DNA of 63,577 nt, filler included, from Collodictyon triciliatum (taxonomy: Eukaryota), in the NCBI GenBank assembly GCA_043381765.1. It is 47 parts of 47 records of this genome, joined end to end, with 100 filler letters (N's around TTAATTAATTAA, not from the genome) between each part and the next. Parts side by side here need not be neighbours in the genome. Positions count along the whole stretch, not along the records: positions 23,076 to 24,331 come from JBHJMP010011663.1; positions 24,432 to 25,687 come from JBHJMP010011664.1; 45 more parts are not named here. One strand, 5' to 3'. The notes below the pieces were generated by a model that saw nothing but the letters and a program-made list of their open reading frames with translations, was not told where the DNA came from and searched no databases. A program made the translations under genes and the position numbers. Positions 13,581-25,803 of this stretch are shown in pieces (positions within the stretch are counted from its first letter, which is position 1; every line of letters starts with the position of its first letter).

Positions 13581-14740
13581 TACGCAACATTCCAACATAT
13601 TAATTCCAAAATTTCTTCTTCATCATATTCTAATTCTTCGCCAGCAGCAAAGCTATAAAGATATAATCGCACGTCTTCGTCAAATTCATTGTCCATGTAA
13701 TCCATAAACTCAAATTCTTTTTCGTCACCAAAAGCTTTTGGAACGTTTTCTTTATAACTAAACCCTCTGTGTTTATACCACTCTTTAAAACAAAGATTCA
13801 TACCTGTGTACACTTTGGATGCTACTCTCTGACCACGCACATTTTTTTTCTGGAGGTATCCTATTGTCAAATACTCTTTTTTAATTCCAATTTCTGCTCT
13901 AACGTCATCTGATAATCTTTGCCACCTTTCCTTTCCTTCTTGACTTTCCATTGCCTCGTCAAATTGTTCAAAATACGCATTTAGCTCATCCATTGTTGTA
14001 TCTAATCGTCCCTTATCTTCTACTTCCTTTGGTTGGTCCTCTATTGCAACTGCTTCCGTAACATCTGCCTCTGCTTCTCTTTCTGCTATTATTTCATCAA
14101 AATATCTTTGTAAACTTTCTTTGCTAGGTCCAGATTTTGCTTGTTCTCCTTCTGCTACAGCTTTGATCATTTCTTCTGAAGTCATATTTTCTGGAGGGTC
14201 TTCATAAAATTTTAATATATAATTAAACCTTGGAATTCGTGGATCATTTTTTCTTGCAGCATTATACATTCTTTGAATAGTGACAATTGTTTTTGCATTG
14301 TATTTCTTAGGTTGTTCAAATACTTGTTCTGGTTCTTCAAATACCGGTTCTGATTCTATGGGATCATCTGGAACTGTAATGTAATAAGGTTCTATTAAAT
14401 CAGCCCTTCCCTGATTTTTTTCAGGGTCTAAAATATCTATTTCTCTTGGCAGTTTTGATCCTACTATATCCTCATACAATTTCTCTAATTGTGTAAAGTC
14501 TCCATAGTCTAAATCTGGGTTTTCACGTCTAGCAGTATAATATAAATCATGAAAATCTTTTAATGCTTGATTAAAATTTTCATTTCTTTTTTGCAGATGA
14601 TGTATAATATAATTAAATCTATACCCAATTAATGAATTATCATCAAATAATGTTTTAATATTGTCTTGTTTAAATAGTGCTGAGTACCAAGGTATTTTTT
14701 TTCTATTCAACTGTTCTAAAGTATAGTATTTGGAGCTCAT
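13581..14740 (-). CDS. Long intronless AT-rich acidic ORF of unknown function, 3' truncated (possibly viral)
   Basis: About 386 uninterrupted codons from ATG 14740 (MSSKYY) to the contig edge. No recognised domain. Confidence 0.75.
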
Positions 14741-14937
14741 ATTATAACCTATATAAAATTTCTTGGCTAATGTATGATTGTTGATGTTAGAAAAGCAAGC
14801 AGAGGTGTTGGTCGCTTTCTTACCCGGCACACGGACANNNNNNNNNNNNNNNNNNNNNNNNNNNNNNNNNNNNNNNNNNNNTTAATTAATTAANNNNNNN
14901 NNNNNNNNNNNNNNNNNNNNNNNNNNNNNNNNNNNNN

Positions 14938-23347: not shown

Positions 23348-24432
23348 TTGTTTGAAAGAGCTCGCTCTGTCTTATTCATAGGTTGTTATACTCACGGGTT
23401 GGTGGCAGCTGGCGTCCTGATTGTTGGTGTGTCTTGGTGTGTAACCTGTGTTGCAAGGGAAGTGGTCAAGTGACCTTTTCGCTCTCTGAGTCAGCTGCGT
23501 CCATCTCGTCCTTCTCGGAATCCCTCTTTCCAATCGTTTGCTTGTTTTTTTTCCGGCTTCATAAAGGGAGGGTTGGGAGAATAAAGGAAAGACCCCCAAG
23601 AGTAATAACATCATTTTATGGAGAATGTGTCTTTTTTTCTCTATCTCTCTACGTGCTTATTGTTTCTCAACAAAGCAGACTTTTTCTTAATTATTGTGAT
23701 TTTTTATTGTTCCTCTAAAGTCTGTCTCTGTCTCTCTGTGATCACCACATTTATTCACATTGTGCGGTATAGAATAGATAAACCTAGGAAATTTGCATTG
23801 CGAAAAAAAACATACAAAGAAAAAAGAACATTGCGTATGGAATGAGAAAATATAAATATATTCCACAAATGGAGCGTTTGGCTTGTCAAGCTTTCTGCTT
23901 TGGCGTGCGGCTTTTCGCTTTTTGCAGAGAACCTGCGTAGGCAATCAAGCTTTGGTTATTTCTACCAGGCAACTTCATAATCCTTTTTTTCCCATTCTCG
24001 ATCCCTTCATATATTGGCACAAAGTTTTTTTTTTTAAAATAAAATGGGTTCAAAAAGTAGAACAATAAGCCTTGGCCGCCTCCTCTTTTCGTTTTGTCAT
24101 GCCCAGAGCTATGACAGCAGCAGAGCGGATATTCTATTTTATATAAACAAAAGATTGGTACACTCCTTCAAGTAAGGCTATAAATAAAGAACTAGCACCC
24201 GACCGAAGGACCGAGCTCACAGAAAGCCTACCGATGGCCGAATCCTCCAAGCATGGCCACAAAAGAGCCTCAAGCTTGCCAGCCTCGACCAAGAGCGGCG
24301 TTTCTCCGTTTCGCCATGGGAAGTTCACTGTNNNNNNNNNNNNNNNNNNNNNNNNNNNNNNNNNNNNNNNNNNNNTTAATTAATTAANNNNNNNNNNNNN
24401 NNNNNNNNNNNNNNNNNNNNNNNNNNNNNNNA

Positions 24433-24963
24433 GCAATGGGTCTTACATTTGTGCGCAGTGAATATACAGGGCCGTTTGGCTTTGACGGCGACGAGTTTAC
24501 TACACCATACCCGGGTGGTACTTTTGATTTATTAAATGGATTTGCTGCTGATGCACCAGCTGCTCGTACGAGAAACGGTGTTACAGTGTTTCAACCTTAC
24601 GCTGCACAAGGAGTGAAATTCGGCGCAAATTATGTTGGGCCACTAGTGCGTGCTAACGGCGATGCACTTGGCACAGCAGGAGGTGCTAACGCAGCTACTG
24701 AGACTGCTTCTTGTGTTAGGTTTATGCGCGAGGGTACACAGAATCCTTGTGAGTTCATGTTAGCATTTAACTTGCGTAAAGTTCTGGACGTGGCCGAAGG
24801 CGAAATAGTGGGAACGGATATCCAGTCTTCAGGCAGCGGTTTGATGAGTTTGAGATTAGAATTTAGTGGGGCAGTTGGCAAAAATTATAATGTGATCGTG
24901 GCCAGTCTGTATGATGCCGTGCTTGAAATTCAGAGCAACCAGCAAACCTTCCGTGTTGAATAA
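24433..24963 (+). CDS. Probable Polinton-like virus double-jelly-roll major capsid protein, C-terminal part
   Basis: Intronless and open to the contig edge. The C-terminus FMLAFNLRK...IVGTDIQSS...LMSLRLEF.....YNVIVASLYDAVLEI resembles the last beta-strands of PLV/virophage-type MCPs. Pattern recognition only. Confidence 0.65.
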   Translation, partial: AMGLTFVRSEYTGPFGFDGDEFTTPYPGGTFDLLNGFAADAPAARTRNGVTVFQPYAAQGVKFGANYVGPLVRANGDALGTAGGANAATETASCVRFMREGTQNPCEFMLAFNLRKVLDVAEGEIVGTDIQSSGSGLMSLRLEFSGAVGKNYNVIVASLYDAVLEIQSNQQTFRVE

Positions 24964-24979
24964 AAATGTATGTGAGCAT

Positions 24980-25123
24980 ATGGAGCCCGTGACGTTGATT
25001 GGTTTGTTGTTTACTGTTGTGTTAGTGGTAGAGCGGCTGTGGAAATATACAGTCCAACATTTGAAGCGCAGCAAGTGTTGCGGCAGCGAGGTAGAGTTTG
25101 AGAAGGGGAGTGATGATGTGTGA
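24980..25123 (+). CDS. 47-aa small membrane protein with KRSKCCG motif (virus-like)
   Basis: MEPVTLIGLLFTVVLVVERLWKYTVQHLKRSKCCGSEVEFEKGSDDV, starting 16 nt after the capsid-like stop. One TM helix, a basic patch and CC. Confidence 0.6.
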   Translation: MEPVTLIGLLFTVVLVVERLWKYTVQHLKRSKCCGSEVEFEKGSDDV

Positions 25124-25314
25124 TGCTACAATTTAGTATTGCGTACCAAATTGTATCGAGGGCGGAAGATGGATATATATGGAAGGTGTCCGTTGATTAA
25201 GGGTGGAAGGCGGCCGCATATGGAAGGTAAGCGTTAGTTGAGGGTGTAATGTTCTGTGGTCAAGGGCGGAAGACAGTATATAAAGGGCTAATTTGGCAGG
25301 GTTGAAAAGGCCGC

Positions 25315-25357
25315 TGTGGAAATTGAAACTATATATTATGGAGTTTCAATTTCCACA
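25315..25357. terminator. Perfect 16-bp inverted repeat (11-nt loop), candidate bidirectional 3'-end hairpin
   Basis: TGTGGAAATTGAAACT-atatattatgg-AGTTTCAATTTCCACA. The hairpin is certain; the terminator function is inferred. Confidence 0.45.
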
Positions 25358-25803
25358 ATTTGTTTATTGAAAATCGGTGACATTAACAAAATAGACGTCT
25401 ACTTATAGATTTTTAGCATTTCATTAAATAATTGTACTTGCCTACCTAATCTTTCTTTGAATATATGGCTCATTTGTTGTTTATTTGCAGTTCGTGTGGA
25501 TCTAAATGTTTGTTATTCATGAAATATTTTTCATATGTAAAAAAAAAAAAAGAGTCCCGCATAACCTATTTGTAAAAAAATAAATATGATATACATACCT
25601 GATTGATTTTACCTCAACAAAATTATGCATCCCGCCGACTGGCGTTATGAACAATAAAGCTCTTGTATTTTTAAGGCAGATTATTAANNNNNNNNNNNNN
25701 NNNNNNNNNNNNNNNNNNNNNNNNNNNNNNNTTAATTAATTAANNNNNNNNNNNNNNNNNNNNNNNNNNNNNNNNNNNNNNNNNNNNAAGAAAAATTAAA
25801 TAG

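Follow-up and report, generated by a model that had tools for sequence, protein, structure and literature searches.

We report that a short contig in an assembly of Collodictyon triciliatum (GCA_043381765.1) carries two adjacent genes, the 3' end of a gene that encodes, judging by the modelled fold of a relative, the final third of a major capsid protein with a double jelly-roll (DJR), and a small gene for a membrane protein. Very probably this DNA derives from the late structural genes of a Polinton-like virus (PLV); PLVs are small dsDNA viruses of microbial eukaryotes and contain a membrane. The stretch of DNA analysed (63,577 bases, here called the window) consists of 47 contigs of 1251–1259 bp in descending size order with 46 joins of N/TTAATTAATTAA/N. 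Because separate contigs were joined, pieces that stand side by side in the window are unlinked in any genome, and the contig at 24432–25687 (1256 bp, with N linkers on both sides) is the sole DNA physically linked to the finding. A preliminary description of this DNA had reported two co-directional open reading frames (ORFs) separated by a 16-nt gap, and these are present as described. It had also argued that they are intronless in an intron-dense genome. This argument does not hold, as the contigs strung together in the window are unrelated, and neighbours without physical linkage to 24432–25687 provide no context for the two ORFs.

The first ORF (ORF1, 24433–24963, plus strand) comprises 176 codons (24433–24960) and a TAA stop codon (24961–24963). 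The contig begins inside the gene, in open frame from its very first base, and judging by the relatives the full gene would encode about 530 amino acids; an ATG at 24436 lies within the coding sequence, as the relatives read ...QKAMGLTFVRSEY... through that point. A search of a large protein collection yielded 34 longer relatives of 428–597 amino acids (E values from 5e-99 to 2e-17), 31 of which cover 100% of the fragment and the other three 95–99%. The closest relative, P0001 (529 amino acids), is 93% identical across 100% of the fragment, which matches residues 354–529 of P0001, the end of the second jelly roll with its final strands. Contigs bearing such relatives are up to 17,215 bp long. 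With profile A1, built from 33 relatives, 571 representative clusters were found at E ≤1e-3, a number that fell to 117 at ≤1e-10 and to 14 at ≤1e-30; cluster members are named 'hypothetical protein' throughout. A near-length search for capsid fragments as a copy count gave three, none of them close. The contig is 89.5% identical to the related locus L001 over 806 aligned positions, and the dN/dS of ORF1 is 0.38 against L001 and 0.19 against L002. The window's capsid sequence is nested with P0001 and P0002 on a terminal branch of 0.008, compared to 0.063 and 0.126 in the two nearest relatives, and neither viral contig of the window (the second is described below) contains an internal stop.

The window contains the last 176 residues only, and the fold was tested on the full-length relative P0001. 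The AlphaFold2 model obtained from a 33-sequence alignment reached a pLDDT of 79.7 and a pTM of 0.82, and a Foldseek search of this model against the PDB gave 236 matches at E ≤1e-3, with the capsid proteins of SGIV (4.9e-16), PBCV-1 (Vp54, 2e-13), Sputnik (V20, 5.2e-12) and mavirus (6.1e-12) at the top and that of Faustovirus also present. Among the BFVD matches listed, those with a name were overwhelmingly viral capsid proteins or homologues thereof, and the ESM Atlas neighbours are viral, most commonly labelled Preplasmiviricota. In superpositions with VIA-align the highest score was obtained with the Faustovirus capsid protein (Z 25.4, 357 residues aligned, rmsd 3.3), followed by PBCV-1 (25.2), ASFV p72 (24.0), Sputnik (20.6), mavirus (18.1), PRD1 P3 (16.1) and STIV (15.7); the alignments cover model residues 13–529, including the part encoded in the window. 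Because the P0001 model superposes on solved viral capsid proteins, we assign the family to the DJR capsid proteins. The preliminary description, which had recognised the end of such a protein in ORF1 and had proposed structure prediction with Foldseek as a check, is thus borne out on P0001: the predicted fold is a jelly roll, and the best matches are viral capsids and not cellular proteins.

The stretch rich in Gly and Ala that precedes the final strands, noted previously, is likewise real and turned out to be the hypervariable, length-variable region of the family. It occupies 24493–24750 on the plus strand (fragment residues 21–106), flanked by two conserved blocks, GFDG and EFML, and evolves faster than its surroundings, with a dN/dS of 0.51 against L001 and 0.31 against L002 compared to 0.17 and 0.03, respectively, in the rest of ORF1. 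In the P0001 model the corresponding residues 374–460 form short strands and one helix. Its variability together with the model suggests that this stretch forms exposed surface loops of the second jelly roll.

The type of virus is indicated by the gene context in relatives. A metagenome scan returned 16 related loci, all 16 of them metagenomic. Two long loci were examined, L009 from a contig of 16.4 kb and L012 from one of 14.8 kb, and in both a packaging ATPase of the Pox_A32 family was recognised, with 38.1 and 37.4 bits at a Pfam cutoff of 22.8. PLV genomes measure about 15–45 kb; the longest capsid-bearing contigs of the clade have 16,409–17,215 bp, and these contigs may be incomplete genomes. 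The gene order conserved in the relatives is a large ORF on the minus strand, an ORF of 114–119 amino acids on the plus strand, the capsid gene on the plus strand and a small ORF. An additional ORF of 254–267 amino acids is conserved in L007, L009 and L012, and its Atlas model matches viral DUF5901 clusters (TM 0.79–0.83), which is a lead towards a penton protein. With a DJR capsid protein and an A32-like ATPase on a small genome, and a penton at the level of a lead, the clade fits the definition of a PLV; Bellas & Sommaruga 2026 (bioRxiv 10.64898/2026.06.19.733378) place PLVs in the class Aquintoviricetes, with TsV and Gezel/PgVV as isolates. The PLV assignment in the preliminary description therefore agrees with the capsid fold, with contigs of up to 17.2 kb and with the A32-type ATPase on both long loci. 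Its suggestion to look for further virus genes, followed here on the relatives, led to the packaging ATPase but to no recognised polymerase or integrase.

The capsid stop codon is followed by a spacer of 16 nt (24964–24979, plus strand), which is A/T-rich and lacks the TCT-N10-ATG motif described below, and by the small membrane-protein gene that adjoins the capsid gene (ORF2, 24980–25123, plus strand; 47 codons and a stop at 25121–25123). Another ATG in the same frame, at 24911, lies further upstream within ORF1, but the relatives do not share it as a start codon. The product consists of a hydrophobic helix (residues 3–17/21, mean hydropathy 2.67 for residues 3–17), a basic stretch of charge +4 (ERLWKYTVQHLKRSK), an invariant Cys-Cys pair at positions 33–34 and an acidic tail (-4), so that the charges around the helix run -1 / +4 / -4. 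In 8 out of 10 loci examined the capsid gene has a homologue of ORF2 behind it, always 16–21 nt past the stop. The exceptions are L006, which has 60 nt left, and L013, the most divergent locus with a capsid protein of about 40% identity, in which the small gene is inverted beside the capsid gene (1370–1531, minus strand). In this way the family adjoins the capsid gene in 9/9 related loci with room for it, in eight cases co-directionally and in one case convergently.

Eighteen positions are invariant among nine ORF2 sequences (alignment A4: M1, E2, T12, V14, L15, V16, E18, R19, W21, K22, Y23, T24, K29, S31, C33, C34, E39 and F40), and the family pattern can be written as ER-W/L-K...K-[KR]-S-x-C-C-G...E-F after the N-terminal hydrophobic helix. 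In all 36 pairwise comparisons pN was lower than pS, and dN/dS ranged from 0.02 to 0.36 in the 14 pairs with unsaturated synonymous sites, as is typical of purifying selection. A profile search found 35 relatives of 34–71 amino acids, on contigs whose sizes match those of the capsid contigs; Pfam gave matches only far below the cutoffs, and in a literature search on small transmembrane (TM) proteins of PLVs none of the titles or abstracts pointed to a protein of this kind. Judged by this conservation, ORF2 is a real gene for a TM-basic-CC micro-protein, in firm genetic linkage with the capsid gene. The preliminary description was right in this respect, but the likeness it had seen to other small proteins of PLVs and nucleocytoplasmic large DNA viruses (NCLDVs) was not found, because the relatives of ORF2 are confined to the contigs of this capsid clade. 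Four small-protein variants, P0196, P0219, P0220 and P0200, come from NCBI-sourced contigs of 531–1099 bp; they are 89–90% identical to the protein in the window and share with its ORF an overlapping upstream in-frame extension. Such short NCBI contigs with ORF2 variants suggest that deposited assemblies contain more fragments of this kind.

Since the linkage to the capsid gene is unbroken, we infer for the ORF2 product a role as inner-membrane or assembly factor of the virion, which is its most likely function and, in our estimate, just on the probable side. The protein would be made together with the capsid protein and would span the internal lipid membrane of the virion once, with its short N-terminus outside, whereas the basic juxtamembrane segment, the Cys-Cys pair and the acidic tail would face the cytoplasm or the interior of the virion. 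Juxtamembrane cysteines are typical S-acylation sites, and the Cys-Cys pair is predicted to be a likely site of this modification. The protein may in this way help to couple the membrane to the capsid shell. The main alternative is a non-structural role, either viroporin-like or in membrane recruitment.

Additional DNA of the clade is present on a second contig of the window (13581–14837). Its minus strand encodes the N-terminal 386 codons of a large divergently transcribed protein (13581–14740, beginning with the ATG at 14740 and running without a stop as far as the contig start), which in the relatives lies upstream of the capsid module, and its plus strand the first 21 codons of the 114–119-aa protein (14774–14837), which in the relatives lies just upstream of the capsid gene; 33 nt separate the two divergent ORFs. 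The large ORF has no Pfam family and is 65% identical to L015 over 91 residues, while the 21 amino acids of the shorter one are 100% identical to L015. The contig as a whole shows 88% nucleotide identity to L015 over 367 nt and no blastn match to L001. Because it matches L015 and not L001, whereas the capsid contig matches L001, the two contigs appear to stem either from two lineages of the clade in the assembly or from a recombinant genome.

A promoter-like motif was found in the gene starts of six loci (L001, L005, L006, L007, L009 and L012). It consists of an A/T run and TTTCT, with the TCT starting 13–14 nt before the ATG, and occurs at 18 of 29 gene starts against a background of 0.033. 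Most capsid, penton-like and small structural genes are preceded by the motif, compared to none of two ATPase genes and one of six large ORFs. In the window it is present before the ORF at 14774 (14759–14776, TCT at -13) and absent before the small ORF at 24980. The motif may resemble the late motif of CroV and mavirus; our literature search found no paper on a mavirus or TCTA late promoter. For virophages and endogenous virophage types, promoter motifs that match particular giant viruses are reported by Koslová et al. 2024 (PMC10945749).

Several results weigh against the capsid and PLV assignments. The capsid assignment derives from the predicted structure of a relative, because matches at the level of sequence are lacking: none of 7 close (full-length) and none of 92 distant ORF1 relatives matched a Pfam capsid family, and PDB sequence searches with the fragment, with profile A1 and with the broader profile A2 gave chance-level non-capsid matches only. 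The clade was also not found in the copy of IMG/VR scanned with A1 and with P0021. The ATPase and the other virus genes lie on contigs of relatives; the capsid contig is too short to accommodate the ATPase, no other contig of the window has it, and a polymerase or integrase was not recognised on the parts of the loci examined. The 254–267-aa ORF has no Pfam match even at E 10 and was modelled from a 3-sequence alignment with a pLDDT of only 41.3, so that its identity as penton is an Atlas lead only, and the place of the ORF2 product in the virion membrane is likewise something we infer. Apart from these points, Pfam and PHROGs gave no usable match for either ORF, and ORF1 did not match the curated families Capsid_N/Capsid_NCLDV, Sputnik_MCP_1st/MCP_V20_C and DJR-like_dom, which appear solely among the labels of Atlas neighbours, and there with a low share. 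Phage records had no match in tblastn with the fragment or with full-length P0001. The earlier impression of a divergent lineage is therefore correct insofar as Pfam and PDB sequence matches are missing, but with 571 representative clusters the family is a large one.

That neither ORF has a Pfam family would also be expected of a cellular gene fragment or of chance ORFs without viral meaning. We give this explanation practically no chance, as the structural matches are viral capsid proteins, the relatives stand beside an A32 ATPase on small contigs, a scan of prokaryote genomes with profile A1 found no relative, and both ORFs are under purifying selection. More serious, though still quite unlikely, is the explanation that the fragment is not strictly of PLV origin. 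It would then come from a virophage (Maveriviricetes) or from a Mriyavirus-like lineage, miniature and Nucleocytoviricota-like, which has the DJR capsid and the A32 ATPase as well. The best Z-scores were those to NCLDV capsids (25.4, 25.2 and 24.0), above Sputnik (20.6) and mavirus (18.1), but such differences among DJR capsids are no phylogeny. Clusters labelled Nucleocytoviricota are present among the Atlas neighbours, and the position-fixed TCT-N10-ATG before structural genes would fit the late transcription machinery of a giant virus. Bellas & Sommaruga 2026 (bioRxiv 10.64898/2026.06.19.733378) moreover describe a continuum from 15-kb PLVs via Mriyaviruses to NCLDVs; the 35–45 kb given there for Mriyaviruses, however, are well above the 16.4–17.2 kb of the longest contigs found here. 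It also speaks against a virophage that neither the virophage capsid families PF21915/PF22031 nor a cysteine protease was detected on the (partial) loci examined. A capsid of a microvirus or CRESS virus with a stem-loop origin, as a hairpin and iteron-like repeats might suggest, was considered as well and set aside in view of the DJR fold, of the packaging ATPase and of contigs as long as 17 kb.

The DNA downstream of ORF2 contains several distinct elements. A short hairpin with 12-nt arms (25127–25155, plus strand) starts 4 nt past the ORF2 stop, and the same hairpin is found in L001 (2754–2786). Non-homologous hairpins 2–6 nt past the stop of the small gene are present in 7/8 loci (L001–L004, L007, L008 and the window), with none in L005, and their z-scores are about -2.1 to -2.6 in 6/8 loci; the window's own 50-nt segment has a z of -0.02. 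In giant viruses the 3' ends of transcripts follow a hairpin rule, and the hairpin after the small gene may be a signal of this type. Next to it lies a repeat of about 41 nt (AGGGCGGAAGATGGATATATATGGAAGG..., 25156–25296, plus strand) with one good and two to three decayed copies in the window, where it was not detected by TRF. In L001 (2788–2867) there are 2.0 perfect copies with a period of 41 and a 100% match, at which the contig ends. Lake-metagenome contigs also end at this repeat, where the depth rises by a factor of about 7–8 (240 vs 28 in run X3, 80 vs 11 in X4; the runs are introduced below). An exact-pattern scan of viral contigs for the repeat unit gave none.

Further downstream, a near-perfect palindrome with 21-nt arms and a 1-nt loop (25315–25357) lies exactly at a break in composition, with the GC content falling from about 0.46 to about 0.25 at 25357/58, directly after the palindrome. 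Its folding energy of -24.5 kcal/mol (z -4.9) was reached in none of 200 shuffles. A hairpin telomere at this site was considered and dismissed, since the sequences on the two sides of the palindrome are not reverse complements of each other. The remaining 330 nt (25358–25687) are an AT-rich, non-coding tail with a GC content of about 0.25–0.28 and no long ORF, which had no match in the loci or the window beyond poly-A; a segment of it gave no exact match in the viral and prokaryote collections. This tail could be a terminal or intergenic region of the virus, host flank or an assembly chimera. The k-mer log-likelihood ratio (LLR) is ambiguous at -1.5, and in the small samples compared a host-like score was obtained for 82% of low-GC host chunks and 13% of low-GC viral chunks.

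Intact reading frames, purifying selection and near-identity to freshwater metagenome sequences show the contig to be part of a recent or active virus genome and not of an old fossil. Among the sequencing runs covered by the search, 20 are listed as sharing words with the contig. Each is a metagenome (freshwater or lake in 17 cases, hot spring in one and subsurface in two, from 16 studies; word share ≤0.17) and none an RNA run, and four of them, X1–X4, were compared in detail. X1, a freshwater metagenome, contains a 264-nt piece with 0 differences from the contig, X3 and X4 hold lake-metagenome contigs of 1.9–2.0 kb with about 91% identity, and X2 has the segment 25471–25687 alone without the viral part; no sequence bridging 25272–25470 was found in these four runs, a gap in coverage that is no evidence either way. 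On the 1.26-kb contig itself no virus–host junction, terminal inverted repeat, host gene or host repeat was found. Whether the virus is integrated in the chromosome of the eukaryote or represents co-sequenced viral DNA is close to evenly balanced.

If it is endogenous, the contig would be the right end of a provirus, with the end of the element near the palindrome and 25358–25687 as host flank, an explanation to which we assign slightly less than an even chance. The sharp drop in GC content right after the palindrome fits it, as do the decay in the window of 41-nt repeats that are perfect in L001 and a last 330 nt without ORF in a place where several relatives have genes; relatives, however, likewise have AT-rich intergenic DNA (GC 0.19–0.29), and the k-mer make-up of the tail is not host-like in the small samples used. 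The occurrence of the tail alone in X2 is a weak point in its favour. At least two lineages of the clade in only 47 contigs would be expected where many copies break the assembly, and according to Bellas et al. 2023 (PMC10120064) capsid genes alone on short contigs are common in draft protist assemblies, 17% of the capsid matches there being on contigs under 1,600 bp. Against integration stand the intact ORFs with their very short terminal branch, the 20/20 listed runs that are metagenomes and not from the organism, and the contig's lack of a host gene, host repeat or junction read. The same chance, a little short of one in two, is given to viral DNA that is not integrated, that is to particles, an infection, an episome or a virus of co-sampled freshwater microbes or food algae, with a tail that is viral too and contigs kept short by assembly at low or mixed coverage. 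This agrees with the identical (264/264 nt in X1) and 91% identical (X3/X4) sequences in freshwater and lake metagenomes, with 16/16 metagenomic loci and with genes that are intact and under selection, although integrated elements that were recently active would look alike. The k-mer score of the tail leans slightly viral, but no metagenome contig runs from the viral part into the tail. The GC contents of the 47 contigs (0.251 to 0.525) would fit a mixed sample, while two lineages in a small window also fit multi-copy integration, which the prior from protist surveys favours (PMC10120064).

Taken further, the observations can be joined into the picture of an organism with several integrated, still-active PLVs of an undescribed freshwater clade, near-identical to circulating particles, whose structural genes would be under giant virus late machinery via AAATTTTCT-N10-ATG and whose capsid protein would have a clade-specific, S-acylated 47-aa protein of the inner membrane as its obligatory partner. 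We regard this combination as unlikely; if it were true, we would be dealing with an inducible element of defence, similar to a virophage, whose virion has a component new to science.

With regard to the rest of the window, Rfam found zero families over its whole length, and Pfam assigned eukaryote-type domains (BART, LRR and WD40) to some contigs. Two contigs are open from end to end: 54220–55470 (plus strand) encodes a 416-aa WD40 repeat protein, and 59624–60874 (minus strand) has a 416-aa frame without a Pfam family and without a match to the viral loci.

Capsid fragments of this kind are known and frequent in draft eukaryote assemblies and freshwater metagenomes. Tens to thousands of PLV integrations are possible in protist genomes, and some PLVs counter giant viruses. 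The fragment adds one occurrence of a PLV and leaves current views unchanged, and it illustrates that the size-sorted small contigs of draft eukaryote assemblies contain recognisable, intact PLV genes. Modest new points are the micro-protein with membrane helix and invariant Cys-Cys, always beside the capsid gene and unnamed in databases, the strongly position-fixed promoter-like motif, and the hairpin immediately past the stop of the small gene.

Compared to known systems, the best fold matches to the P0001 model are the NCLDV capsid proteins (Faustovirus 5j7o, PBCV-1 Vp54 8h2i/5tiq, ASFV p72 6l2t and SGIV 8hif), which align with Z 22–25 over 331–357 residues at an rmsd of 3.0–3.8 and span both jelly rolls. 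They differ from the clade by a sequence identity of only 8–11% and by their context, as the clade's genes are found on a small element of about 17 kb and not in a giant virus. The virophage capsids (Sputnik V20 3j26 and mavirus 6g45) show the same fold with 376–380 residues aligned, and virophages have a similar genome size and the A32 ATPase partner in common with the clade, but their Pfam families are unmatched and their Z-scores lower than those of NCLDV capsids. Small membrane proteins are known from DJR viruses with an internal membrane such as PRD1 and PBCV-1, and the ORF2 product is likewise tiny, single-pass and encoded in the structural module; no sequence relationship to them was found, and relatives of ORF2 came from its own capsid clade only. 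The endogenous PLV and virophage capsids of Bellas et al. 2023 (PMC10120064) offer a close parallel, with lone capsid fragments on contigs below 1,600 bp and more than one lineage; there PacBio long reads were screened for two organisms to resolve integrated viruses, while in the present case integration has about an even chance. The clade also corresponds closely to the PLVs (Aquintoviricetes) themselves. From these the clade differs in being without a Pfam or PDB sequence match and absent from the IMG/VR copy searched, but it shares with them a DJR protein of about 500 amino acids together with an A32-like ATPase, and perhaps a penton, on contigs of about 16–17 kb, and PLVs, too, are abundant in freshwater metagenomes and occur on short contigs of eukaryote assemblies, as is the case here.

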